The position numbers and the translations under genes were made by a program. Positions 1 to 57,970 of a stretch of 64,000 bases of DNA are shown in pieces (position 1 is the stretch's first letter; each line of letters opens with the position of its first letter). The notes beneath the pieces were generated by a model. It was not told where the DNA came from, did no database searches, and worked only from the letters and a program-made list of their open reading frames with translations. Source of the stretch: Patescibacteria group bacterium (GTDB taxonomy: Bacteria > Patescibacteriota > Microgenomatia > UBA1400 > PJMF01); the NCBI GenBank assembly GCA_045541795.1, contig JAZQJV010000018.1, forward strand, positions 118,236-182,235, written 5' to 3'.

Positions 1-28
1 CTCAAATGTAGTGGCGGTAAACAACCCC

Positions 29-56
29 TTGACAAAACAAATATTTCTGGTATAAT
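29..56 (+). promoter_or_regulatory. sigma70-type promoter (TTGACA, 16-nt spacer, TGgTATAAT)
   Basis: TTGACA at 29-34 and extended -10 ctggTATAAT at 48-56 read directly. Downstream are an AGGAGG at 139-144, a 16-codon sORF and the terminator at 325-355. Confidence 0.45.
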
Positions 57-324
57 CAGAGTTGTTCTTTGATATTGATTGCCGCTGCCGATTGCATGGC
101 GGTTTGGCGATCCGATAAAGACAAAATCTGGTTTTGCAGGAGGTGGCGGCCAATGATTGTGCGTTTGATGACGACTATGATTACAGATTGGGCGAACATC
201 TAGCTCTCAAAAGAAGTGGGACGACAGATAGGAAAAATGCGCTTTTGGGCAGACTGATGGGCTCTACACTGTCAGTCTAGGAAGCAAAGCTGTACCATTG
301 CAAATTCGGAAATAAGGTTCAATT

Positions 325-355
325 AGCCCCGGAAATAATCCCGGGGCTTTTTTTA
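325..355 (+). terminator. rho-independent terminator
   Basis: GC stem agccccgg/ccggggct with loop aaataat, followed by a T run (cttttttt). Confidence 0.6.
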
Positions 356-388
356 CACAGATACAGGCAGGTAAAACACACAGGTTAA

Positions 389-565
389 GTGGGTAAAGAA
401 TTATCTAGTAATCGCACTGAACACGTAATTTATTTGCTTGACGAGCCAACCACTGGTTTGCATTTTGAGGATGTACAGCGATTGCTTTCGATTTTAAGTT
501 CGCTGGTAGGACAAAACTCCAAGTCATGGACAGGTAAGTTTTTGGTCACTGAATTGGCGCGTTAG
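389..565 (+). pseudogene. uvrA: 3' remnant of excinuclease ABC subunit A (uvrA)
   Basis: Translation gives [31 protein letters not shown]..., matching the C-terminal ABC signature/Walker B region of UvrA ([20 protein letters not shown]). An in-frame stop lies immediately upstream and the sequence degenerates after the motif. There is no upstream uvrA body, and a terminator precedes it. Confidence 0.55.
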
Positions 566-600
566 TCGCAGAGAGTAATGTTTAGTTTTTGTGATGAATT

Positions 601-626
601 ACCCCGACCTTACGGTCGGGGTTATG
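601..626 (+). terminator. GC-rich hairpin, probable retained terminator of former uvrA
   Basis: 8-bp stem ccccgacc/ggtcgggg with loop ttac, followed by TTAT. It lies 36 nt after the remnant's stop codon. Confidence 0.4.
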
Positions 627-834
627 GACAAATGTGATATGAATTATTTTGAACAATTATGTCTACTCAAAATTATAGTGACTACGCCCAGATTAACCTG
701 ATAACACCTATTGAATATGATCACTATTCAATTAGTTTGTTTAGGTTTTATCAATGTGAAAATTAATAAGTTGCCCAGCACGAGTTTGTTATAATCGGCT
801 TTAGGTTAATAATTTGTCTGGTCACCAGGCATAA

Positions 835-1374
835 GTGCCAACATTATTAACTGGAGGTTATATCACTTTTGCCTGGAAATCCATATGCGACCATCATGAC
901 TATAATCGTATTGATTTGCATGCCTTTAGACTGGACAATAGCTTTACTTATACAGTTTCACTTACAGTCAATTATGACAAGGTTAATCTTTTAGAGAAAC
1001 TGCCAGTCTTACCAAAGTTCGAACAATTATTTATAACTTTCAATCAACCACAAATGCTACTGACCGATACTTTATTGTGGCACGCTGATCGTTGTTACCA
1101 ATTTCAGGGACAAACATTCAATTATGTCCTCATCAGAGCACTGGTAAAAGCCAATGGAGAAATTCCCTGGAACGATCAGCTGCTGCTGATGTATGATCCT
1201 GGTCCTCTTCATCTAAGTAGCTCGAAAATAGATGATAGAAGTACTTTAATTTGTCGTGCTATAGATGACCTTAACTTGGAGCTCAAACAAAAACTTAAAA
1301 TGAATTTTACACCGATACACAGACGTAAAAATAAATTTATTAAATTTGATAAACAAATTATACTATCGACATAG
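835..1374 (+). CDS. hypothetical protein (AT-rich island gene)
   Basis: 179-codon ORF (GTG start) with no recognizable motif. A promoter-like tttgtTATAATc lies about 40 nt upstream. Confidence 0.35.
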   Translation: MPTLLTGGYITFAWKSICDHHDYNRIDLHAFRLDNSFTYTVSLTVNYDKVNLLEKLPVLPKFEQLFITFNQPQMLLTDTLLWHADRCYQFQGQTFNYVLIRALVKANGEIPWNDQLLLMYDPGPLHLSSSKIDDRSTLICRAIDDLNLELKQKLKMNFTPIHRRKNKFIKFDKQIILST

Positions 1375-1469
1375 ACTCACTTAGCTGGAGTTACTCTAGG
1401 CTCAGTTTTTGCTTCTCTGGTAGTTTAATATCCCTGTCTAGAAATTAGTCGAGGCTATTAAACGACCGC

Positions 1470-1679
1470 ATGAGACAGAGCACAATAGTAGTACCAGCTC
1501 GCACCGACATCGGGAAAAAATATCGTACTAGCTACGACCCTATATCAGAGCAGGACGTTCACGATTTTATTGCTGCCGTTAAGGCAGATAGTGGATGGGT
1601 ATTGAAGTTTGATGAGGCAAAACAAACAGCCAATGATTTAATAGAGTTGGCCAAATTAGTCAATAAATATCAGGAATAA
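1470..1679 (+). CDS. small hypothetical protein (69 aa)
   Basis: Short ORF in the island with no recognizable domain. Confidence 0.3.
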   Translation: MRQSTIVVPARTDIGKKYRTSYDPISEQDVHDFIAAVKADSGWVLKFDEAKQTANDLIELAKLVNKYQE

Positions 1680-1693
1680 CTGTCTTAAAAGTC

Positions 1694-1722
1694 TTGCATT
1701 TTTAATCAATTTGTGATATAAA
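1694..1722 (+). promoter_or_regulatory. promoter (TTGCAT, 17-nt spacer, TGaTATAAA) for the DUF1016/AlbA_2 operon
   Basis: -35/-10 read directly. The ATG at 1736 lies 13 nt after the -10, giving a near-leaderless transcript. Confidence 0.45.
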
Positions 1723-1735
1723 GACCACATTAATT

Positions 1736-2824
1736 ATGACAAACACAAAAAAGATCCAGACAGTTACTAGTAACGATATGTCGATGTCTAATGATCAAGA
1801 GTATCGGGAATGGTTAGTCGACTTAAAAACAAGATATCAACATAGTCGCATTAAAGCATCTATAAAAATTAATTATGAGGTCATTTTTTATTACTGGTCT
1901 GTTGGTCGTGACATTGTGATTAAAAAAGCCGAATCAAAATGGGGTAGTGGTTTTTATGATAATTTGAGTCGCGATCTACGACGAGAATTACCTGGTATAC
2001 AGGGATTATCAAAAACAAATCTCAAATACATGAAGTACTTTTATGATCTTTTTCCAGATGTGTTTACTGATAAGTCAATTCGTCCACAAGTTGTGGACGA
2101 ATTGGAGCAAATACCTTGGGGACATATCCGATATATTATAGATAAGTGTCGCGGTGATCAACAAAAGGTGATATTTTTCATCAATAAGACCGTGGAAAAC
2201 AACTGGTCGAGAGCAATGCTGCTAAATTTCCTGGATACAGATCTTTACGAGAGGCAAGGGAAGGCGATTACGAATTTTACCAATAAGTTAGCTTCGCCTC
2301 AAGGAGAATTAGCTCAACAGCTTACCAAAGATCCTTACAGTTTTGACTTTCTTACTATGAGAGAAAACTATCAAGAAAAAGAGCTTAAGGATGCCCTGAT
2401 TGCTAATATTGAAAGATTTCTGCTGGAACTTGGCAAAGGTTTTGCTTATATGGGACGGGAATACCGCTTACAAATCGGTGAAACTGAAAAATTTATAGAT
2501 ATGCTCTTTTACAACACTGTCCTGCGTTGTTACGTGGTAGTAGAAGTCAAAGTGGAGAAATTTGAATCCGGACATTTAGGGCAATTGGGATTGTATGTGA
2601 CCGCGGTTAATCATCAGCTCAAAAACGAAACTGACAATCCCACTATCGGTCTGTTGATTTGCAAGAGCAAAGAGAATGTGGTGGCGAAATACTCGCTAGA
2701 AAGCATGGCGGTGCCGATCGGAATATCAGAATATGAGTTGCAAAAAATCTATCCCGCTGATTTCAAGAGTAGTTTGCCAACGATAGAGGAGATAGAGAAT
2801 GAGCTGGCTGATAATAACGATTAG
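1736..2824 (+). CDS. DUF1016/YhcG-family PD-(D/E)xK nuclease (paralog 1)
   Basis: N-terminal YhcG_N-like region (EYREWLVDLKTRYQHSRIKASIKINYE). C-terminal core has the D...EVK pattern (DMLFYNTVLRCYVVVEVKVEKFESGHLGQLGLYV) and the family C-terminal motif GISEYEL. Confidence 0.7.
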   Translation: MTNTKKIQTVTSNDMSMSNDQEYREWLVDLKTRYQHSRIKASIKINYEVIFYYWSVGRDIVIKKAESKWGSGFYDNLSRDLRRELPGIQGLSKTNLKYMKYFYDLFPDVFTDKSIRPQVVDELEQIPWGHIRYIIDKCRGDQQKVIFFINKTVENNWSRAMLLNFLDTDLYERQGKAITNFTNKLASPQGELAQQLTKDPYSFDFLTMRENYQEKELKDALIANIERFLLELGKGFAYMGREYRLQIGETEKFIDMLFYNTVLRCYVVVEVKVEKFESGHLGQLGLYVTAVNHQLKNETDNPTIGLLICKSKENVVAKYSLESMAVPIGISEYELQKIYPADFKSSLPTIEEIENELADNND

Positions 2825-2845
2825 TAAAAATTAAGGTAATAACAT

Positions 2846-4273
2846 ATGTTCACACCTTTTGGCAAGAATCTCGACAATCTAAGTTTTGAAGACATTCAAA
2901 AATTTTGCGATAAAGGTGTTGCTGAAAATATTTATATTGATTACAAGAAAGAAATTAATCAGAAGAATGATCATCTTGCCAAAACTATTGCGTCCTTTGC
3001 TAATACACATGGCGGCTGGATAATAATTGGAGTAGAAGATAAGAATGATCGTCCAAACTCTCCATTTAACGGGATTGACTATACAGATGGAATAGAGTCT
3101 AGTATAACTACTATAATTGTTGACAATATTTATCCATATGTCGAAGTTACATCAAAGGTTATTGTCAACCATGATAATAAAAGAGCTTTTGTTGTAGTGT
3201 ATGTCCCAGAAAGTCATAAAACACCACATTGGATTAACAGCAGAAGGGATCTTTATATTAGAGCTAATACTAGAACAAAAACTGGCAGAGATGATATTAA
3301 GAATAAAAACGAAGACTTGGATATTTACGCCACTTCTGAAAATTGGGAATTCTTAAGAAATAAAAGGGAAAGGTCTCAACAACTGGCAATAGAATTGGAA
3401 ACAGCTTTAAATCGTTTGTTTCTATCATATAAAGATAAAGAAGAACGTTTGTGGTATCAAAATAACGAAAAAGTTAAAAATAATCCGTCGCTGCAAAGTA
3501 TAATATCTGAAGATATGGATACACTCGACTGTGCAGATCCAAGTATCACAACAATTAAAAATAGGCGAGAGTTCAGAAGCGAATGTTATCATGATAACAT
3601 TAGTATTATTGTCCAGCCAGTTTTCCCATCATACGCTATTTCTTCACCGCGTGATTTGAGAGAACACTATTCGTCTAACAGCGGTGCAAACCTCACTAAC
3701 GTTGGTTCACTTGACGAAAACTACAAACTTGATTATTTTCAAAACGGGATAGTAACTTTTTTTACTCCCGACAATAAGACAGGCAACCATTGCGCATTTT
3801 TTGCTCAAGACATCTTTGGTTCGTGCATGGTAAAACACAAGATAGTTCAACACAATCGAAAGAAGATTGATAACTACCAGGGTTATGAAGTGCCGCCAAA
3901 TAGTAACATTATTGACTTTGAATACTTGATAGTTTATATTGAACAATTTTTAAAATATGCATCAGTTTTTTATAAACAAATTGGTTATTTAGGCGAACTT
4001 AGACTTAAGGTGGTCATGAATGTGCCAGAATGGTCATATATGATAATTCATGATTCAACCAAGAATTTTCCGCTTGCATATAGTAATTCTGATAAATATT
4101 TTCTTTGGGAGAAAGTTTTTATTAATGCTGATTTTGTTAACGATCAAGAACGAAATAAAATACTAAATACTATGTATGAAAGTATTGGATTCTTTTTTAA
4201 TTGTGACGAAATTCCTAAACAAATAATTAATAATCTGAGAAAGAATCCAAATAATGCTAATGAGCAACTTTAA
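2846..4273 (+). CDS. AlbA_2 (Schlafen-like) domain protein with large C-terminal region of unknown function
   Basis: The N-terminus (NLSFEDIQKFCDKGVAENIYIDYKKE...TIASFANTHGGWIIIGVEDKND) matches the AlbA_2/divergent-AAA DNA-binding fold signature (sAFANt.GG.iiiGv.d). It starts 21 nt after DUF1016 paralog 1, so is probably co-transcribed. Confidence 0.6.
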   Translation: MFTPFGKNLDNLSFEDIQKFCDKGVAENIYIDYKKEINQKNDHLAKTIASFANTHGGWIIIGVEDKNDRPNSPFNGIDYTDGIESSITTIIVDNIYPYVEVTSKVIVNHDNKRAFVVVYVPESHKTPHWINSRRDLYIRANTRTKTGRDDIKNKNEDLDIYATSENWEFLRNKRERSQQLAIELETALNRLFLSYKDKEERLWYQNNEKVKNNPSLQSIISEDMDTLDCADPSITTIKNRREFRSECYHDNISIIVQPVFPSYAISSPRDLREHYSSNSGANLTNVGSLDENYKLDYFQNGIVTFFTPDNKTGNHCAFFAQDIFGSCMVKHKIVQHNRKKIDNYQGYEVPPNSNIIDFEYLIVYIEQFLKYASVFYKQIGYLGELRLKVVMNVPEWSYMIIHDSTKNFPLAYSNSDKYFLWEKVFINADFVNDQERNKILNTMYESIGFFFNCDEIPKQIINNLRKNPNNANEQL

Positions 4274-4303
4274 CTTCCCGTCTCAAAAACTCCCCAATCA
4301 TGC

Positions 4304-4368
4304 TATAATCAACCTCAAGTAACTGGGTTCGGATTTCCCGCCAGAAACCACCAAAAAATAGGATATTG
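4304..4368 (+). repeat. direct repeat R1: orphan copy of a promoter plus 5'-leader module
   Basis: TATAATCA, 14 nt, then TGGGTtCGGATTTCCCGCCAGAAACCACC and an AAAAA..GGAT..TG tail. It is near-identical to 6839-6907 with the same spacing. No downstream gene follows on the + strand. Confidence 0.6.
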
Positions 4369-4423
4369 AAGTACGCAAATTATATCCATATAAAAACGAT
4401 ATTTTAAGCAAATTATTTGGTAT

Positions 4424-5602
4424 TTAATCATTATTGTTAATGTTTAAAAGTAATTGTAATCTTTTCATGATTTCATCGAATGTTATTATTATATTTCTGG
4501 AAACACTCTTTCTGAATAAGTTGAACGATCTTTCTTGTTCTTCAAGAAGTCCTGATTTGTTACCGATAATAATTATTCCTAATGGATCAAGAGCATTCAA
4601 GCGGTTATCTTCATAATCTTTTCCAATAAGAGTTGAAAAATTATCACTCGCAATTCTAATTTGATTTTCTAGTTGAACTATCGCACCACTCAATTCGTCA
4701 GACATGGAATAGCACACATTCTCTCCAACGGCATCTGAATTGCCTCTATATTGATGTCCAATAATGGCACTTTGCGGTGTTTTAATTTCAATAACTGCAA
4801 AGCTTTTATTTGAAAGATTTTGCAAAAGAAAATCAGCGGCGACTCCTCCTTGGCCGTTTCTTCCACGACTGTTCTTTCCTCCTAGATATGTTTCGCCATT
4901 CAAATAACAGACTGGACAATAAAACAAACTCTCAAAAATCCACTGATTTTCTGTGAAGAATGCTTGCCAAAAGTTTTCTTTTTGGTTATTATTCATATTT
5001 TTCGCAATTGTATTAATTGCATTCTGCAATTTGGCTAGTAATATAATATTTTCTAATACTCTGATGTTTCCTTTTCCTAAATCTCTTAACTTGGTAATAA
5101 CCATTTCCTTATTTTTAATATCGCCAATTTGCAATAAAACACTTTCTATATTTCCTTCTCCAATAGATATTGTTGTGGTTCCAAATTTAATACCGTTTTC
5201 ATTTAGAGTCTCTCTAATTAACGGTAAATGCTCAAAGAGATTTTTCATGGCTTCACCATCAAGGTTGAGATCATAAAATTCTCCTTTTCTTAACTTAGTA
5301 ACAGATAGGCCTTTATAACTTTGCCAGTTGTCATTAATTCCTTTTCTTTCCCATCTGAAACCTCCTCGCAATGGTTTGTCAGTTTGAGATGGGTCTACCC
5401 ACTTTGGGTAAAAAAGTAATCTTGTGCTTTCAGTTTCTTTTAGTATAATTGGGGAAATATCAGCGGTTTTATTGGAAGTAGATTTTATTGTTATATCTTT
5501 TGATTCTTTCTGTTTGTCTGTAAATCCCTTGCGAGGTAGCGTGAAATCTATTTCTCCTGAAATATTGCTAAAATCATATTTTGGAGTCATGGTGGCTTTC
5601 AA
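4424..5602 (-). CDS. DUF4263-type PD-(D/E)xK nuclease, Shedu (SduA)-like
   Basis: C-terminal GGVAADFLLQN...SFAVIEIKTP (D..EIK nuclease core) and the terminal block IIIIGNKSGLLEEQERSFNLF...IITFDEIM fit the DUF4263 pattern (viiGr...IlTYDdL). The gene is 392 aa with a variable N-terminal domain. It lies 6 nt downstream of DUF1016 paralog 2. Confidence 0.55.
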   Translation of the reverse strand: MKATMTPKYDFSNISGEIDFTLPRKGFTDKQKESKDITIKSTSNKTADISPIILKETESTRLLFYPKWVDPSQTDKPLRGGFRWERKGINDNWQSYKGLSVTKLRKGEFYDLNLDGEAMKNLFEHLPLIRETLNENGIKFGTTTISIGEGNIESVLLQIGDIKNKEMVITKLRDLGKGNIRVLENIILLAKLQNAINTIAKNMNNNQKENFWQAFFTENQWIFESLFYCPVCYLNGETYLGGKNSRGRNGQGGVAADFLLQNLSNKSFAVIEIKTPQSAIIGHQYRGNSDAVGENVCYSMSDELSGAIVQLENQIRIASDNFSTLIGKDYEDNRLNALDPLGIIIIGNKSGLLEEQERSFNLFRKSVSRNIIITFDEIMKRLQLLLNINNND

Positions 5603-5608
5603 TCAAAA

Positions 5609-6736
5609 TTACCTATTTGCTTCTAGCAACTTTTTCTCTATCTCCTCTATCGTCGGCATCGTTCCTTCCACCTTTTGCGGATACAACTTCTCCAGTTCGT
5701 ACTCCGAAATTCCCAATGGTTGATTGCTAGATTCCAAAGCATACTGAGCGATTAAATTATCTTTTTGCTTGCAAATGAGCAAACCGATAGTCGGATTATC
5801 TCGTCCTTCTTTTTGTAAAAGGTGATTGCAAGAAACCACGTAACCGCCAAGTTGCCCCAAATCGGCAAAATCAAATTCGCCAATTTTCACTTCAACCACA
5901 ACGTAACAAGACAACTGTAAATTATAGAAAAGCAAATCAATAAATTTTTCTTTCTCGCCGATTTGCAGTCGATACTCTTTTCCCACATACGCGAAGCCCG
6001 TGCCAAGTTCTAATAAAAATTTGGTTATATTTTCTAGCAGGGCATCTTTTAATTTACGTTCATTGTATTTATCGGTAATACCAGTAAAAGCAAAATTATA
6101 TGGATCTTTTGTTAATTCCTGAGCTAAATCGCTAGTAACATTGGGTAAGGTTTTGCCAAAATTCGTCAATGCTTTTCCTCGTCGATCATAAAGATCGGTT
6201 TCAATAAAATTGAGTAGCATATCTCGGCTCCAACCATTTTCTATTGTTTGGTGAACAAAAAAGAGTGCTTTTTGTGGTTCTGTTTTGAATTTATCAATTA
6301 ACAGCTTATGATGGCCCCACGGAACAGAAAAAATGTCGCTTTCAATTTTCTCAATGACTTGCTGAGTAATTACATTACTTTCTATTTGCTCCCCAACTTG
6401 GGGAGCAATTTCGAAATATTGATGGTAAAGTATATAAAAGTTTTTCATGTACAACAAATTTGTCGGCGAAAAACACGTTGCGTCAGGATTGAGAGTTTTA
6501 AGGTCTCGGCTGAGATTTTTCATGAAACCACTGCTCCATTTACTTTCGGCTTTCATTACCACAATGTCTCTGCCCAAATCATAGTAAAAACGAAGCATTT
6601 CCCGATTAACTTTTACTGCTGCTCTAACTTGGCTCAAGCGATAACGAGAAGAAAGCTTCCCAATCCACGAGGCATAATTTTCATCTAGAATTGTTAGTGA
6701 CTGAACTTGTTTTGCAACCTGTTTTTTCTCTGTCAT
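5609..6736 (-). CDS. DUF1016/YhcG-family PD-(D/E)xK nuclease (paralog 2)
   Basis: About 60% identical by eye to paralog 1 over its full length (shared ...KAESKW.SGF..NLSRDL..., PWGH, ENGWSR.MLLNF, DLLFYN..L.CYVVVEVK, GISEYELEKLYP). Confidence 0.7.
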   Translation of the reverse strand: MTEKKQVAKQVQSLTILDENYASWIGKLSSRYRLSQVRAAVKVNREMLRFYYDLGRDIVVMKAESKWSSGFMKNLSRDLKTLNPDATCFSPTNLLYMKNFYILYHQYFEIAPQVGEQIESNVITQQVIEKIESDIFSVPWGHHKLLIDKFKTEPQKALFFVHQTIENGWSRDMLLNFIETDLYDRRGKALTNFGKTLPNVTSDLAQELTKDPYNFAFTGITDKYNERKLKDALLENITKFLLELGTGFAYVGKEYRLQIGEKEKFIDLLFYNLQLSCYVVVEVKIGEFDFADLGQLGGYVVSCNHLLQKEGRDNPTIGLLICKQKDNLIAQYALESSNQPLGISEYELEKLYPQKVEGTMPTIEEIEKKLLEANR

Positions 6737-6747
6737 AGTGGCTATTA

Positions 6748-6776
6748 CTTATAGCACAATAACGCTATTTTGTCAA
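6748..6776 (-). promoter_or_regulatory. promoter (TTGACA, 17-nt spacer, TATAAG) for the DUF1016/Shedu-like operon; near-leaderless
   Basis: Reverse complement reads TTGACAaaatagcgttattgtgcTATAAGtaatagccactATG. The start codon lies about 11 nt after the -10. Confidence 0.5.
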
Positions 6777-6838
6777 TACTGATAATTAATTATTATTGGC
6801 ATTTATTTTCAATTCTTGCAAAAACAACTTCATACTGT

Positions 6839-6907
6839 TATAATCAGTTTCAAATAATTGGGTGCGGATTTCCCGCCAGAAACCACCCCAAAAAGATGGG
6901 ATTACTG
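6839..6907 (+). repeat. direct repeat R2: promoter plus 5' leader of the zinc-ribbon/TM2 gene
   Basis: TATAATCA, 14 nt, then TGGGTgCGGATTTCCCGCCAGAAACCACC and the AAAAAgATgGGATtAcTG tail. The ATG at 6923 follows. Confidence 0.6.
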
Positions 6908-6922
6908 CGATGAAAGTGAAAC

Positions 6923-7054
6923 ATGACAGATGAAAAAACAAAATACTGTAAACATTGCGGTTCGCTTATTGATGTAGAATTGCATAATATGCCCGAAGTG
7001 TGGCAAGCAGGTCGAACAAGTAAAAGCCGAGCTTCCAAATGTAGTGATCAATAA
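6923..7054 (+). CDS. zinc-ribbon protein fragment (CxxC half), probably the frameshifted N-terminal part of the TM2 gene
   Basis: MTDEKTKYCKHCGSLIDVELHN... terminates at TAA 7052. The second CxxC half (CIICPKCGKQVEQ) is encoded in the frame of the downstream TM2 ORF, starting just after an in-frame TAG at 6975. Confidence 0.4.
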   Translation: MTDEKTKYCKHCGSLIDVELHNMPEVWQAGRTSKSRASKCSDQ

Positions 7055-7256
7055 CAATAACACCAATTCGAATATAAACTATGCTGGTGCTGTGGGGAGC
7101 GGGCGGCCTATCAATAAGTGGATAGCTTTGGGTTTATGTCTTTTTCTGGGCATATTCGGTGCTCATAAGTTTTATGAAGGAAAGATTGGCATGGGAATAT
7201 TGTATTTGTTTACATTTGGTTTGTTTAGTCTTGGTTGGTTTTTAGATATTTTTTAA
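7044..7256 (+). CDS. TM2 domain membrane protein (C-terminal part of split gene)
   Basis: GAHKFYEGKIGMGILYLFTFGLFSLGWFLDIF matches the TM2 domain signature. GTG start at 7044. Its upstream frame continues stop-free back to 6978 and encodes CPKCG. Confidence 0.55.
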   Translation: MINNNNTNSNINYAGAVGSGRPINKWIALGLCLFLGIFGAHKFYEGKIGMGILYLFTFGLFSLGWFLDIF

Positions 7257-7355
7257 TCCTAACAAAGCCTAATCCTTATTACATATAATACTTTTACATT
7301 TGCGTTTTTATTATAACTACGTTATAATAACACAAACTTTAAGGAAAATATAAAC

Positions 7356-8429
7356 ATGAAAAATCATCGAAAATTCCATCCTCGCATTATTGTCAATATC
7401 ATCTGTCTTTTTTCATTGGCATTATCTCACATTATTTTTTCGCTACCGATTAAAATAATTGATACAGTTTATGCCGTCGAGCGTGAAACTGTCACTGTGA
7501 GCCGTGTGATTGATGGTGATACAATCGTTTTGAATGATGGGCGAAAGGTTAGATATATTGGAATTGATACACCAGAAACAGTTCATCCAACAAAAAATGT
7601 GCAGTGTTTTGGGAAACAAGCCAGTAACAAAAATAGAGAATTAGTCCTTGGTAAAACTGTGGAACTGGAAAAAGATATCAGTGAAACTGATCGCTATGGA
7701 CGTTTACTCAGATATGTATATTTGGATGGCGTCATGATTAATCATAAATTAGTCGCTGAAGGTTATGCCACAACCGTAACCTATCCTCCAGATGTTAAGT
7801 ATAAAGAAGAATTCTCCAAAGCTCAGGCGCAGGCAAGACAAGCAAGACTTGGGCTATGGGGTAATGAATGCAACGAAAGCAGCAGCACTCACGCATCCTC
7901 AAACAACAATGCTAGCTCAAATACAAATAAAATGGATTCGTCAAGCACATCGTCATCATCTCAAAACAACAAAACTCAAAATGACCATGAAGGCAACCAA
8001 GCTTCTACTCAACCAACTAACACTAGCGCACAAAAATGTCCATCAAATTGTAGTGAGGCCAAAAGCATGGGAATGGTTAACATTACACCGTCGCATCCAT
8101 GCTGGCAAGAAAAATTTGATGGCGATAAAGATGGCGTGGGTTGTGAAAGTGACAACCGGTCTACCAATACAAAAACAACTAACAAATCCAATAATGTCAA
8201 TAAACAGACCAGTGCTACGCCGGCACCCACGCCAGTGCCAAGTCGCGCCCCAACGCCAGAACCAACCCCACCGCCTACGTCAGTGCCAGCTCCAGCTGCG
8301 CCAACCCAATCTTGTCCAAATAACTGTACCCAAGCAAAGGCAATGGGAATGGCCAATATGACACCTTCTCATCCTTGTTGGCAATCTAAATTTGACCGAG
8401 ATAAAGACGGTATTGGTTGCGAAGACTAG
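7356..8429 (+). CDS. secreted thermonuclease (SNase-like) with two C-terminal Excalibur calcium-binding domains
   Basis: N-terminal TM/signal segment. SNase core (VSRVIDGDTIVLNDGRKVRYIGIDTPE...DRYGRLLRYVYLDGVMINHKLVAEGYA). A PT-rich linker is followed by two copies of C.xNC..AK.MGMxN.TPSHPCWQ.KFD.DKDG.GCE (Excalibur DxDxDG...CE). Confidence 0.7.
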   Translation: MKNHRKFHPRIIVNIICLFSLALSHIIFSLPIKIIDTVYAVERETVTVSRVIDGDTIVLNDGRKVRYIGIDTPETVHPTKNVQCFGKQASNKNRELVLGKTVELEKDISETDRYGRLLRYVYLDGVMINHKLVAEGYATTVTYPPDVKYKEEFSKAQAQARQARLGLWGNECNESSSTHASSNNNASSNTNKMDSSSTSSSSQNNKTQNDHEGNQASTQPTNTSAQKCPSNCSEAKSMGMVNITPSHPCWQEKFDGDKDGVGCESDNRSTNTKTTNKSNNVNKQTSATPAPTPVPSRAPTPEPTPPPTSVPAPAAPTQSCPNNCTQAKAMGMANMTPSHPCWQSKFDRDKDGIGCED

Positions 8430-8438
8430 AAAGTAAAA

Positions 8439-9119
8439 ATGTCACAAAAAGATAATAGCAAACATTCTTGCAGAATAATCATGGCCGCATTGCTAGTGCT
8501 TCTAAGCATTGCATTGCTGCATAAATCTTTTTTTGCTGCCGCCTTCACTATCTGCTACGCATATCTCATCTCGCCACTATCAATTCAATTGGTAAGTAAA
8601 ATATGTAAGAAAGAAAATGAGAAATGGCTATATTCAACCATGACTTTTATTTTTGCTCTTTGCTGGATGACCACAATTCAAACTGGTCAGCCACAAATGG
8701 ATAATGTGTTAACGCAAAATAGTGAAAAAAACGCATCGCTAGAGAATGCGTCAACACAAAATAATGAAAAAATCGCTTCACTAGAAAAAGAGCTCCAATC
8801 AGTTAAGAACGAAAGAGATGAAATTCAAGCAAACAACCAAAAAAGAGCCATTTCAGCTGCCAAATCATATTTGGAATACAGTCCAATGTCGAGCCGAGAG
8901 TTGATTAAGCAACTCGAGTTAGAAGAATTTTCTCATGAAGACGCAGCATACGGTGTAGAGCATGCTGATATCAATTGGAACGATCAAGCATCACGGTCAG
9001 CAGTCCTCTTTATTGAGTTTGCTAATCCGTCAACCGAAGAATTAAAAAAACAACTTGAGTACGAAGGTTTCACAAGCAACGAAATAAAATTCGCCATTGA
9101 GCATAATAGTAATGGGTAA
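8439..9119 (+). CDS. membrane protein with tandem Ltp-family (host cell surface-exposed lipoprotein-like) domains
   Basis: Two N-terminal hydrophobic segments, then two repeats fitting the Ltp pattern (AISAAKSYLEYSPMSSRELIKQLELEEFSHEDAAYGVEHADINWNDQA, then SRSAVLFIEFANPSTEELKKQLEYEGFTSNEIKFAIEH). Confidence 0.6.
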   Translation: MSQKDNSKHSCRIIMAALLVLLSIALLHKSFFAAAFTICYAYLISPLSIQLVSKICKKENEKWLYSTMTFIFALCWMTTIQTGQPQMDNVLTQNSEKNASLENASTQNNEKIASLEKELQSVKNERDEIQANNQKRAISAAKSYLEYSPMSSRELIKQLELEEFSHEDAAYGVEHADINWNDQASRSAVLFIEFANPSTEELKKQLEYEGFTSNEIKFAIEHNSNG

Positions 9120-9148
9120 ATGACTCTATTGCTTCCAGTAAGGAAAGT

Positions 9149-9490
9149 ATGCCATCTACCAAAAGTTACCTTAATCACCTTCTAACTCAATTCTCGCAGT
9201 TGGATGATATTTCTTACCGCTCGATGATGGGGGAGTATATCATTTATTTCAAAGGCAAAGTAGTAGGTGGAATTTATGATGATCGATTTTTGGTCAAGAC
9301 AACAAAATCTGCACTCGCGTTGATGCCAAACACAAGCAAAGAATTACCATATCCCGGTGCGAAAGAAATGTTGTTGGTAGACGATACGGGAGACAAAGTA
9401 TTTTTACGCGAGCTGCTGACCGCGATATATGAGGAGCTGTCAGTGGTAAAGAAAAAAGAAAGCACATTAAAACGTTTATTAACGAATTGA
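9149..9490 (+). CDS. TfoX/Sxy N-terminal domain protein
   Basis: MMGEYIIYFKGKVVGGIYDDRFLVK resembles the TfoX_N core (MFGG.G.y.ng.mFa.i.dd.LylK). The ORF is 113 aa and has no C-terminal TfoX domain. Confidence 0.45.
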   Translation: MPSTKSYLNHLLTQFSQLDDISYRSMMGEYIIYFKGKVVGGIYDDRFLVKTTKSALALMPNTSKELPYPGAKEMLLVDDTGDKVFLRELLTAIYEELSVVKKKESTLKRLLTN

Positions 9491-9502
9491 CATTCATTGT
9501 CC

Positions 9503-10165
9503 TCATCTTTGACGTCTCGCTCTCTCCATATACTCTCTTTGCACCCGCATAAATAATTCCTTATCTGCCAAAAGCGTCCGGATCTCATTTAAAAAACGCT
9601 CGTACTCCGGATCAGAAAAAAAGTATTTCGCATAGCCGCCCTCACCAAATTTTTCTTTCAGGTGTTGCCAACTTCTCACAAACAATTGCTCGTCACTAAA
9701 ATCCGGATGTAAATTTTTACCATACACAAAACTTCGATACAAACAATCTTCTACGCTCGTATTTCTGTCCGCCGTGGACACAATTTTCCCGTACACGCTC
9801 CGGGGCTCGTGATTGCTTGAAGCACGATGATCTTCGATTGCCTCTTTAATCAGTTTTAATTGTTTACCGCTAAAAAAATCAGGCAAATGCTTATCCTCAC
9901 TCATCATCCGCGCAGAAATAATCTCATGCTTGGCTGGATCAATGTGATGTCCCAGATCATGATAAGCAGCCACAGTGTAGACAATGTCTAAGTTAACGTC
10001 GGTCAGTTTTTGCGCCAAGTTAATACTTCTTTCAATGACATATTTAATGTGTTTTAAATTATGAGCTGGCTCATTTTGAGCGTACTGCGGGAAAACATTT
10101 TGCTGGATGTATGTTTGTAATTTTCTATTGACGGTAGGATAAAAATTATTTTCTAACATAAACAT
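9503..10165 (-). CDS. HD-domain phosphohydrolase
   Basis: H..HD motif (HNLKH...AAYHDLGHHID) plus a downstream D. The start is reassigned to the ATG of MFMLENN because a TGtTATAAT -10 lies inside the longer TTG-initiated ORF, making the transcript leaderless. Confidence 0.6.
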   Translation of the reverse strand: MFMLENNFYPTVNRKLQTYIQQNVFPQYAQNEPAHNLKHIKYVIERSINLAQKLTDVNLDIVYTVAAYHDLGHHIDPAKHEIISARMMSEDKHLPDFFSGKQLKLIKEAIEDHRASSNHEPRSVYGKIVSTADRNTSVEDCLYRSFVYGKNLHPDFSDEQLFVRSWQHLKEKFGEGGYAKYFFSDPEYERFLNEIRTLLADKELFMRVQREYMERARRQR

Positions 10166-10269
10166 TACTATATTATAACACGAGCAGACATTTTGAAAGC
10201 TCAAAAATATAGCGTCCAGTTTTTACAACTTTCGCTCATTTCACCTTACCGGTATGGTATAATACCCCT

Positions 10270-10735: not shown

Positions 10736-11833
10736 ATGGTGCAAACATTGATTAGGCGCTATTGGCAAACTGCATTCGCTGTTGTCCTCGTGTGTCTGTC
10801 ACTGTGGCAGCTGAGGTCTTTGTGGACTCTTCACCAATTAGATTTTCACGTTTATTATCAAGCTGGTAAAGCTTGGCGAGATGGCGGTGATCCTTATGGC
10901 GATCTAGGTCTTGGTGAAAGTTTGACCTTCCTTTATCCCGCCCCTGCTTTGCTTATCTTTTGGCCGCTTTCATTTTTGGATCTGGAGACAGCACAAAAAG
11001 TGTGGTTGCTCATCAATCTGAGTTTGATTTTTGCCAGTGTTTATTTGTGTCTCACGCTCCATCGCACGAAAATTGCCTTAGCATCAGTAATGCTGTTTTA
11101 TGCTTTTGTCCTGCAAACATTTAGCGTCAAGTATAATCTTGGCATGGGGCAGATTAATGTTTTAGTGTTATTTTTGGTTTTATCCACCTGTCACTTGCTT
11201 TCTCGCCAGCATACAAGGTTAGCGGGTTTCTTTTTAGGGCTGGCGGGCGTCGTTAAAATCTGGCCTTTGGCCTTGTTGCCGTTTTTGTTATCTAAAAAAC
11301 AGTGGACAGTGTCTATAGTCGCCATTCTCACATTTTTGCTGCTTCAATTGCCTTGGTGGCAGACGACGGCGCGCAGTTTTGCCGCTGTCAGCGCGCACTT
11401 ACATACGGCAGGGTCAATCAGCGATGACGTCTACGACCAGTCGTTTATTGTTGCCCTTAATCGTCTGATGAATTGGTCGGGATGGAAAATAGTAGTGCCG
11501 GCCGCGATGATCGCCATTTACGCCTTTGTAAGCTATCGCTTTGGCCAATGCTTACCAATTGATGAAGTTTGCTTGTTTCTAATCATTCCCATCATTTTTG
11601 CGGCGTCGCCGGTGTACGCTCACTATCTGATTTATCTTTATCCGTGCTTATATCTATTACTCCGGCGCCATTGGCTGGCTTTGCTGTGTGCTTGGTTGTC
11701 GGTGCAAATTAAAATTGGTACGGATACAGTGTGGTATTTACGCTCGTATTATGCATGGTGGGCAGCATTGCTTTGTATTATAGCATTGGTTTATGGCGGC
11801 AGCAAAAAGAATTGGCATCGACTTCCCGTATAA
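10736..11833 (+). CDS. polytopic membrane glycosyltransferase, DUF2029/GT87-like
   Basis: DFHVYYQAGKAWRDGGDPYGD in the first loop resembles the DUF2029/PimE-type signature. More than 9 predicted TM segments. Confidence 0.5.
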   Translation: MVQTLIRRYWQTAFAVVLVCLSLWQLRSLWTLHQLDFHVYYQAGKAWRDGGDPYGDLGLGESLTFLYPAPALLIFWPLSFLDLETAQKVWLLINLSLIFASVYLCLTLHRTKIALASVMLFYAFVLQTFSVKYNLGMGQINVLVLFLVLSTCHLLSRQHTRLAGFFLGLAGVVKIWPLALLPFLLSKKQWTVSIVAILTFLLLQLPWWQTTARSFAAVSAHLHTAGSISDDVYDQSFIVALNRLMNWSGWKIVVPAAMIAIYAFVSYRFGQCLPIDEVCLFLIIPIIFAASPVYAHYLIYLYPCLYLLLRRHWLALLCAWLSVQIKIGTDTVWYLRSYYAWWAALLCIIALVYGGSKKNWHRLPV

Positions 11834-12025: not shown

Positions 12026-14049
12026 TGAAGTTGAAGTTTTGGGTTTTGAGTTTGGCAGCAGTGTTGTGTTTCCCCGCTCTTGCGTCTGGTGCGAGCATCG
12101 AACAGATCTTGGCTAGCATGAGTACTAGCGATAAGATCTGTCAGCTCCTGATCCCAGCCTACCGCAAGACGGCCAGTAATGACGCCACTGTCTTAAGCAG
12201 CGACGCGGCGGCACTCATCAGTCAGTATCCTTTTGGTGGTTTTATCGTTTACGGCGAAAATCTTGTCGACAATGACGCCGGCGTCCGGTTCATCCATGAC
12301 GTCCAACGTGCTAATATCAGCGCTGATACCGGCCGGCCGCAATTGCTCGTAATGACCGATCAGGAAGGAGGCCTAGTCTATAGGCTTACTCACGGCACAA
12401 GCGGCATCTCGCCGATGGCTATGGGTGCGGCTAGAGACAGCACTGCCACTCAGACGATCGCCAAAATCCTAGGCACTGAAGTGTCGGCCCTCGGCATTAA
12501 TTGTAACCTCGCTCCAGTACTCGACGTCGTCACCAATCCGCGCGGTTATATCGGCCTGCGGGGTTTCGGCATTGATCCGCAGCTGGTAGCCGATCAAGCC
12601 AGTAGCTATCTGCGCGGCCTGCGGGAGGCGGGTGTCCTAGGGGCAGTCAAACATTTCCCCGGCACAGGCAGCGCTCAGGAAAACACAGATGGGGCCAATT
12701 TGCCCGTCGTCATTAGTAAGACCCTTGAAGAGCTAGAGTCTTGCGATCTCATTCCTTTCCGCCAGGTGATCAAGCAGGGCCTGGTAGACATCGTGATGGT
12801 TTGCAATGACAGTTTTTCAAGTATAGAAACGCGCCAATTTACCGGCTCTGACGGCCAGCAATATGCCCTCCCTGCTTCAGTTTCCCCGGCGATTATCAAT
12901 GACCTGCTGCGCTGTGGGCTCGGCTTTGACGGCCTGGTGCTCACTGATGCACTCTTGGGCACAGTCATGGCCGCACAGTTTAGTGCCGTGCAAGTCTTAG
13001 AGTTGGCTTTGCAGGCAGGCGCCGACATGATGCCGTACGCTTTAGACCTCAACTCAGTCGCGAGTGTGGCGGCATTCCAGCAGGCCCTGGAGACTTTCAC
13101 TGCACGGGTGGACGCGGATCAACAATTGCAAGGTCTACTAGACACTGCTGTCAGGAGGATTTTGACGTTTAAAAGTCGCCATGAACTCCTGACTCCGTAT
13201 GCTCGCTCAGATTCTTGGGCGGCTAGTCAGGCACAGACGGTACTCCAGAATGTCAGCAACCAGGCTCATCACGACCTCCAGTGGCCGGTTGCTTTGAGTG
13301 CGGTCACGCTGGTGGAAAACCGTAATCAGGCTTTGCCGCTTAGCGGTGATGAGAGAGTGGCCATCCTCTATTATTACGCTAGTCAGGAAGCATCAGTGCA
13401 ACTTGCTCTTGACCGGCTTGTAGCTGACGGTCAGCTGACAAGCAGCCAGGCGGCAGACGTCCTTAATCTAGACGTCCACGACGAAAACTTAAGCGAACTG
13501 CTCACCGGCGTGGACACCGTAGTCATTTTAAGCTCTGTCTATTATGAATCGGAGTTGAGCCCAGATTCTCCCTCTCCTTACAGCGACGAAATCAGTATCG
13601 TGCTGCCACTCCTGTCAGAACTCGCTGGTCGTGGAGTCAAAATCATTCACGCCAGTTGTCATCTTCCTTACGACATCGGGCTGTATCTGGGGCGAGTGGA
13701 TGCCATCCTGGCTTGCTATTTGGCCAACGGGATCTCCCTTCCTATCACCACACCAGATAATCAGCCTCGTTACGGCGTTATGGTACCGGCACTCGTTTAC
13801 AAGCTTTTTGATCAGCGGGGAGATTTTTCCGCCCGACTGCCCGTAGACATTTACACTATTAATGGCGGGCAGTATCAGCTAGACGATGTCCTTTTGTCTC
13901 GCGGCTGGGGTCTGACACTGGCTGGTGACGTCATCACTGATCCGGTAGCGACTCACCAGAGCTCTAGCGGCGGCTGTAATGCTTTGTCGGGATTGTGGCT
14001 GTGGACGGGCATTCTTGTTTTCGCCTCTAGCAAAAAGTACCACTGCTGA
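12026..14049 (+). CDS. secreted glycoside hydrolase family 3 (beta-N-acetylhexosaminidase-like)
   Basis: Signal peptide (MKLKFWVLSLAAVLCFPALASGA). GH3 N-domain motifs (LVMTDQEGG, GINCNLAPVLDV, KHFPGTGSAQENTD). The AAAGGAGG ribosome-binding site lies 8 nt upstream. The leader is about 115 nt from TTTTATGGTATAAT. Confidence 0.7.
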
Positions 14050-23813: not shown

Positions 23814-23890
23814 AATTGGTGACTCCAGAGGGATTCGAACCCTCGATCTTTTGGATGAAAACCAAATATCCTGGACCGCTAGACGATGGA
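23814..23890 (-). tRNA. tRNA-Glu (anticodon UUC), CCA encoded
   Basis: Reverse complement GGCTCCATCGTCTAGCGGTCCAGGATATTTGGTTTTCATCCAAAAGATCGAGGGTTCGAATCCCTCTGGAGTCACCA. It has a 7-bp acceptor stem (one GU pair), GG in the D-loop, anticodon stem TTTGG/CCAAA with loop TTTTCAT (U33, UUC, A37) and T-arm GAGGG-TTCGAAT-CCCTC. Confidence 0.8.
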
Positions 23891-23910
23891 GCCAGCTTTC
23901 AAAGAACTCA

Positions 23911-57904: not shown

Positions 57905-57970
57905 ATGCGTTATTATACCATACAAAAAGCTGTCTGCATCGGTAAAATTCACCCAGGCAAAAATTGCCTC

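Follow-up and report, generated by a model that had tools for sequence, protein, structure and literature searches.

The repeat and the genes that it brackets

The window analyzed here is a stretch of 64,000 nucleotides (nt), or 64 kb, from a genome of the Patescibacteria group (contig JAZQJV010000018.1, positions 118,236 to 182,235 of the forward strand). Near its left end, two copies of a short direct repeat lie on either side of a pair of minus-strand genes encoding the Shedu nuclease SduA and a DUF1016/YhcG nuclease. The repeat search returned one direct-repeat family of 75 nt (4284 to 4358 and 6819 to 6893; same strand, 79% identity without gaps, spacing of 2,535 nt). The best gapped local alignment paired 4301 to 4364 with 6836 to 6902 on the plus strand, at about 88% identity and with three gap positions. 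These coordinates agree with those of the original prediction, which had proposed a direct repeat of about 65 bp at 4304 to 4368 and 6839 to 6907, and the annotation by Pfam and PADLOC upheld its statement that the repeat brackets Shedu and DUF1016. The main features are the following (all positions are those of the window):

4301 to 4364, plus strand: left (orphan) copy of the repeat, with an extended -10, a poor -35, the 29-nt core and an A-run at 4353 to 4358, and with no plus-strand gene after it
4427 to 5590, minus strand: Shedu SduA nuclease (SduA_N and SduA_C; 388 amino acids), the leftmost gene of the bracketed segment
5609 to 6736, minus strand: DUF1016/YhcG PD-(D/E)xK nuclease (PADLOC PDC-S02; 375 amino acids), identified by Pfam and PADLOC
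6836 to 6902, plus strand: right copy of the repeat, with an extended -10 and the 29-nt core, making up most of the leader (about 72 nt) of the zinc-ribbon/TM2 gene
6923 to 7285, plus strand: zinc-ribbon/TM2 membrane-protein gene, frame-disrupted when compared by tblastn with intact homologs

The repeat is real and well beyond chance. With up to three mismatches allowed, the window still holds just two occurrences of its 23-mer CGGATTTCCCGCCAGAAACCACC (4330 to 4352 and 6865 to 6887), and 100 dinucleotide shuffles gave none. An nhmmer profile built from both copies recovered them at E values of 1e-18 and 1e-21. The next-best match in the window had an E value of only 0.5, from which we conclude that the window holds no third, weaker copy.

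Promoter and core of the two copies

Each copy opens with an extended -10 element, TGcTATAAT at 4301 to 4309 in the left copy (TG at 4301 to 4302, TATAAT at 4304 to 4309) and TGtTATAAT at 6836 to 6844 in the right one (TG at 6836 to 6837, TATAAT at 6839 to 6844). This shared TGnTATAAT, together with the alignment, bears out the earlier reading of the repeat as a promoter -10 and transcribed leader duplicated in the same orientation. The 29-nt core, TGGGTKCGGATTTCCCGCCAGAAACCACC, lies 14 nt 3' of the -10 (4324 to 4352 and 6859 to 6887), differs at a single position between the copies and is followed directly by the A-run. A good -35 is found at the right copy only (TTGCAA at 6816 to 6821, with a 17-nt spacer), just upstream of the repeat; the left copy carries no recognizable -35.

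The window contains 24 TGnTATAAT sites, most of them immediately before a gene, and the ATG often follows just 6 to 9 nt past the -10. Examples are the sites at 10255, 15837, 33498 and 50356 on the plus strand and at 57920, 15740 and 10180 on the minus strand. The organism thus appears to make wide use of extended -10 promoters and leaderless mRNAs. Both copies have the form of an extended -10 promoter of the sigma-70 type (TGnTATAAT, with an optional -35) and are predicted promoters. Since TGnTATAAT is the usual promoter form here, both look genuine, as far as an argument from consensus goes.

The left copy sits between the stop codon of an AlbA_2 gene (4273) and that of Shedu (4424). A survey of the open reading frames (ORFs) of the region found no plausible plus-strand ORF after it, so that its description as an orphan, with no plus-strand ORF of note downstream, holds. 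A small ORF within the repeat itself was discarded after the three frames had been read by eye, as they contain neither an ATG or GTG start nor a ribosome-binding site. The sole candidate starts are a TTG in the right copy and a CTG in the left copy, each right after a TAA stop. The left copy is in frame past the AlbA_2 stop, which is a one-in-three coincidence.

The gene behind the right copy

Alignment by tblastn with four intact homologs (66 to 70% identity) divided the zinc-ribbon/TM2 gene into three pieces in two frames (6923 to 6979, 6978 to 7250 and 7253 to 7285), revealing two frameshifts, the second of them within a T6 run. The right copy had been proposed to drive this gene. Its position before the gene stands, but the gene is not intact: it is split relative to its intact homologs, and the right copy therefore lies in front of a disrupted gene. 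A real pseudogene is likelier than a sequencing error, if unproven, because the other genes of the window are intact.

A prophage “moron” is a unit in which a gene, complete with promoter and terminator, is inserted between phage or island genes. At three loci, the genes for TM2 homologs (63 to 67% identity) were found to be moron-like, lying in prophage lysogeny modules beside integrases and repressors. The repeat was absent upstream of the homolog at all three loci, and each upstream region was different.

Searches for RNA families, folds and recombination sites

In the whole window, the lone match to Rfam 15 over the gathering threshold was a tRNA-Glu at 23820 to 23893. A further search of 4200 to 7000, and of short segments surrounding either copy, with truncated matches allowed and E values up to 10, gave only noise (E = 0.15 to 9.4, far below threshold). 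A known riboswitch or leader is thereby ruled out at both the gathering and the E-value thresholds. The folds of the copies were no more stable than those of shuffled sequences (z = +0.36, -0.22, -0.61 and -0.99). Their minimum-energy structures differ from each other, and two near-identical copies offer no covariation to assess. The proposal that the 29-nt core is an RNA or regulator element shared by two transcription units thus found no support in Rfam, in the folds, in the window, in the sequence collections described below or at the three loci of the TM2 homologs.

By eye, GGGTTCGGAT in the core recalls a T-loop, the left copy ends in ACCACCA, and there is some likeness to the 3' end of the tRNA-Glu of the window, GAGGGTTCGAATCCCTCTGGAGTCACCA. 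ARAGORN found just this tRNA-Glu (23817 to 23893) and nothing in either copy, and cmscan of the isolated core gave no match to tRNA or transfer-messenger RNA (tmRNA) models at E values up to 10. A tRNA-like attachment (att) core was accordingly ruled out, the would-be T-stem being unpaired as well.

The Pfam scan of the ORFs between 835 and 17806 revealed nucleases, AlbA_2, TM2, Ltp, TfoX_N, HD, GT87, GH3 and ribosomal proteins, and no integrase, recombinase or transposase; the ORF at 389 to 565, outside the scan, reads UvrA-like. No inverted repeat was found at the cassette ends, 4365 and 6835. A target-site duplication of a transposon or insertion sequence was rejected, since the repeat measures 65 to 75 nt at 79 to 88% identity and is accompanied by neither inverted repeats nor a transposase. 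An integron cassette with attC sites was likewise rejected: there is no integrase and no palindromic fold, and the cassette has a predicted promoter of its own.

Distribution of the core in other genomes

The genome scan covered one genome for each of 185,579 species (about 596 Gb). The 19-mer GGATTTCCCGCCAGAAACC matched twice, against a number expected by chance that we estimated by hand at about 4; one match lay in high-GC coding DNA and the other in a glnA leader of a metagenome-assembled genome of Acetivibrionales. The same 19-mer matched once in IMG/VR, in coding DNA, and two more scans of IMG/VR with flanking subpatterns gave unrelated matches only. The 18-mer GGATTTCCCGCCAGAAAC had 44 matches in the JGI metagenomes, about the chance number, again estimated by hand, and none of the 44 extended to the upstream TGGGT or the downstream CACC.

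In the Acetivibrionales genome (JBMNKL010000001.1; 1739 to 1803 of the fetched locus), the glutamine synthetase leader holds GCGGATTTCCCGCCAGAAACC, which shares an identical stretch of 21 nt with the core. It lies 18 nt past a TGTTAAAAT, a spacing similar to that in the repeat, and after a second GATTTCCCG. Scored with nhmmer, this match reached 21.8 bits, against 14 to 19 bits for the other 46 chance matches; we treat it as chance because such an excess is expected among 47 matches.

A blastn search of 4250 to 7300 against plasmid and phage records found short coding matches in the DUF1016 and TM2 genes, which left the copies of the repeat uncovered. The genome, metagenome and viral collections held no true match to the core. 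Within the reach of searches by exact word and by profile, the element appears private to this locus.

The genome is a singleton, and the proteins of the island around the repeat are singletons in a collection of 5.8 billion proteins, with no relative above 60% identity (the next SNase has 60% and the next Shedu 54%). Exact look-ups of the SNase and Shedu proteins, of the protein encoded at 10736 to 11833 and of P0001 gave no contig for synteny. The sole other contig of the same species (JGI) stops at about window position 14000, short of the island.

The defense island

The following features surround or accompany the bracketed pair:

1736 to 2824, plus strand: DUF1016/YhcG nuclease (PADLOC PDC-S02), upstream of AlbA_2; a paralog of the product of 5609 to 6736 (53% amino acid identity)
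2846 to 4273, plus strand: AlbA_2/Schlafen-domain protein gene, with its stop 10 nt before the start of the 75-nt repeat family (4284)
4361 to 4387, minus strand: weak AT-rich hairpin (GGATAT, 15-nt loop, ATATCC), a possible terminator of the Shedu pair
6748 to 6776, minus strand: predicted own promoter of the DUF1016-Shedu pair (TTGACA, 17-nt spacer, TGcTATAAG), read from the sequence
7356 to 8429, plus strand: SNase-Excalibur (secreted SNase) nuclease
8439 to 9119, plus strand: Ltp-type superinfection-exclusion lipoprotein

The first part of the window, from 1 to about 10 kb (1 to 10200), has a GC content of 34 to 41%, versus 43 to 54% in the rest, where ribosomal-protein genes and other core genes are found. 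This low-GC segment is a horizontally acquired defense and exclusion island. It contains two PDC-S02 genes, AlbA_2, SduA, TM2, SNase-Excalibur, the Ltp lipoprotein, TfoX_N and HD, and the zinc-ribbon/TM2, SNase and Ltp-type genes match PHROG families of morons or superinfection exclusion. The island is made of independently mobile defense or moron genes. It adjoins GT87 and GH3 genes and the ribosomal-protein cluster. At its left edge, the isolated short ORF at 389 to 565 reads like the ABC signature region of the UvrA C terminus and is probably a gene fragment.

The Shedu gene was identified by Pfam (SduA_C, 9e-22; SduA_N, 7e-12) and by PADLOC (SduA, 1.3e-68), and DUF1016 is a single-gene defense candidate, PDC-S02, in its own right. 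On their shared strand, 18 nt separate the stop codon of the DUF1016 gene at 5609 to 6736 from the Shedu start codon that follows it, and the promoter predicted for the pair lies outside the repeat, back to back with the right copy. In two close homologs of Shedu (52% identity; three contigs fetched), the gene lies within type I restriction-modification operons, and DUF1016 and the repeat are both absent from these three contigs. The original prediction had called the Shedu and DUF1016 genes an operon: they are indeed an adjacent same-strand pair, but not a conserved operon. The differing neighbors of the fetched homologs indicate that the modules were assembled in this order locally.

The two DUF1016/PDC-S02 paralogs each adjoin a different nuclease-type partner (AlbA_2/Schlafen in one case, Shedu in the other), and the two pairs, 1736 to 4273 and 4427 to 6736, are convergent. 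An inverted duplication of one module of DUF1016 and its partner was ruled out, as the partners differ and the paralogs are just 53% identical. Between the pairs, the hairpin at 4361 to 4387 is followed on the minus strand by TATTTTTTGG, the complement of the A-run of the left copy, and for this reason the relic of the left copy may supply the T-tract of a Shedu terminator; the terminator scan made no call at this hairpin.

Origin of the two copies

The two copies are probably a local duplicate of an ordinary moron-type promoter and its 5' leader, made during cassette recombination. The source segment would be an extended -10 promoter of the sigma-70 type together with the initial 50 nt, roughly, of the untranslated 5' leader that belongs to the zinc-ribbon/TM2 gene. 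It would have been duplicated on recombination of the 2.5-kb module of Shedu and DUF1016/PDC-S02 into the low-GC defense and superinfection-exclusion island, by illegitimate or short-homology recombination or because two units, both with this promoter, were joined. The right copy still stands before its own, frameshifted gene, and the left copy, which has no gene, would be an orphan remnant. The latter may still fire, giving a read-through transcript antisense to the 3' end of Shedu, and its A-run may act on the other strand as the T-tract of the terminator discussed above. The fully conserved 23 nt probably reflect the limited divergence of a short duplicate rather than a dedicated function. 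The direct repeats could also mediate loss of the cassette (a segment of 2,535 bp) by recombination. In Escherichia coli, 23 identical bases are near the minimal length for homologous recombination, and the Shedu/PDC-S02 pair might be lost in this way because the repeats share that many.

Some points weigh against this origin by duplication. TGnTATAAT and the core are intact in a left copy that is supposedly useless, whereas the 14-nt spacer between them carries five changes; an intact -10 and core with a diverged spacer is the pattern that would be expected of selection on two functional blocks. Mismatches fall at 5 of the 14 positions between the -10 and the core and at none of the 23 positions of the core run. 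When mismatches were permuted, an identical run of at least 23 nt arose with P = 0.09 in the 52-nt stretch that starts at the -10 and stops with the core and with P = 0.02 in the 75-nt frame; for some 29-nt window with at most one mismatch, the values were P = 0.14 and P = 0.025, respectively. The values for 52 nt (0.09 to 0.14) are compatible with random placement of mismatches, so the evidence for nonrandom clustering is marginal and suggestive at most, and two copies cannot separate constraint from chance. Moreover, the exact-word scans are blind to relatives with changes inside the word of 18 to 19 nt, and the duplication by insertion is inferred, not observed.

The core might instead be a functional cis-element of two transcription units, either a leader RNA or an operator spanning about +8 to +37, with the left copy driving a noncoding or antisense RNA over the 3' end of Shedu and so coupling the defense pair to the TM2 unit. 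In favor of this, the orphan copy has retained both the extended -10 and the 29-nt core, with a diverged spacer between them, the identity run is marginally nonrandom in the 75-nt frame (P of about 0.02), and the left copy points toward the Shedu 3' end. We nevertheless regard a functional element as unlikely: Rfam gave no match even at E values up to 10 on short stretches, the folds are no better than those of shuffles and differ between the copies, and the plus strand shows no intrinsic terminator past the left copy. The element has, moreover, no third copy in the window and no relative in any collection searched, is absent from the three loci of the TM2 homologs and precedes a disrupted gene at its right copy. 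The more specific version, in which the core is an operator or leader RNA private to the island and the orphan copy a live promoter of an antisense or noncoding RNA over the 3' end of Shedu, seems to us distinctly improbable; if true, it would tie expression of a toxic defense nuclease to the signal that controls a neighboring membrane-protein unit.

Direct repeats with an identical core that bracket a discrete defense cassette also recall attL/attR-like sites, or else the extended target duplication that a mobile element might have left on bringing in the cassette. A core derived from a tRNA 3' end could be suggested by the T-loop-like GGGTTCGGAT, by the terminal ACCACCA of the left copy and by the superficial resemblance that the core bears to the 3' end of the tRNA-Glu (GAGGGTTCGAATCCCTCTGGAGTCACCA). 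An origin from such sites or from a mobile element is very unlikely, since no integrase, recombinase or transposase is found among the Pfam-scanned ORFs, terminal inverted repeats are lacking, and ARAGORN and the tRNA and tmRNA models of Rfam were negative in both copies. The similarity runs past the core on both sides and into the promoter, unlike att arms, its length and partial identity (65 to 75 nt at 79 to 88%) are unlike those of a transposon target duplication, and neither the rest of the window nor the collections searched showed the core at another gene border. That the repeat is a chance similarity or an assembly artifact is barely credible. The assembly is of the metagenome type and the adjacent TM2 gene has indels, but chance is opposed by the shuffles (0 of 100 matching the 23-mer) and by the nhmmer E values. 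The copies differ at 12 to 21% of positions and therefore do not stem from a collapsed or duplicated read path, and intact flanking genes can be read through at both junctions.

If the copies did arise by duplication of a promoter and leader, they are a footprint of the way in which defense islands are built, with modules that carry their own promoters stacked by recombination and orphan promoter copies left behind.

Comparison with known systems

The attL and attR sites of integrative islands, often derived from tRNA 3' ends, resemble the two copies in being same-orientation repeats with an identical core around a horizontally acquired cassette. They differ from what is seen here, where a recombinase and any match to tRNA or tmRNA are lacking, the homology extends 5' into a promoter and identity outside the core is partial. 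With cis-regulatory RNAs of 5' untranslated regions and antisense RNAs of toxic nucleases, the locus shares a core 3' of a promoter in a 72-nt leader and an orphan copy facing the 3' end of a nuclease gene, but not an Rfam family, a stable or shared fold, conservation in other genomes or a terminator. Extended -10 promoters of the sigma-70 type are matched perfectly by the TGnTATAAT of both copies, as of 22 other sites in the window; the left copy departs from them in having neither a recognizable -35 nor a gene to express.

Prophage morons, and the short conserved sequences at the junctions of mosaic modules, are similar in that a repeat of promoter plus leader lies at the border of an inserted module, the TM2, SNase and Ltp genes match PHROG families and the TM2 homologs lie in prophage lysogeny modules. 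In contrast to those systems, the locus has neither an intact prophage nor an integrase, and with two copies only, a recurrent role at junctions is not demonstrable. The feature is useful as an annotation note and calls for no new mechanism: it is a real but ordinary case of direct repeats and orphan promoter copies at a module junction of a defense island, of a known kind.

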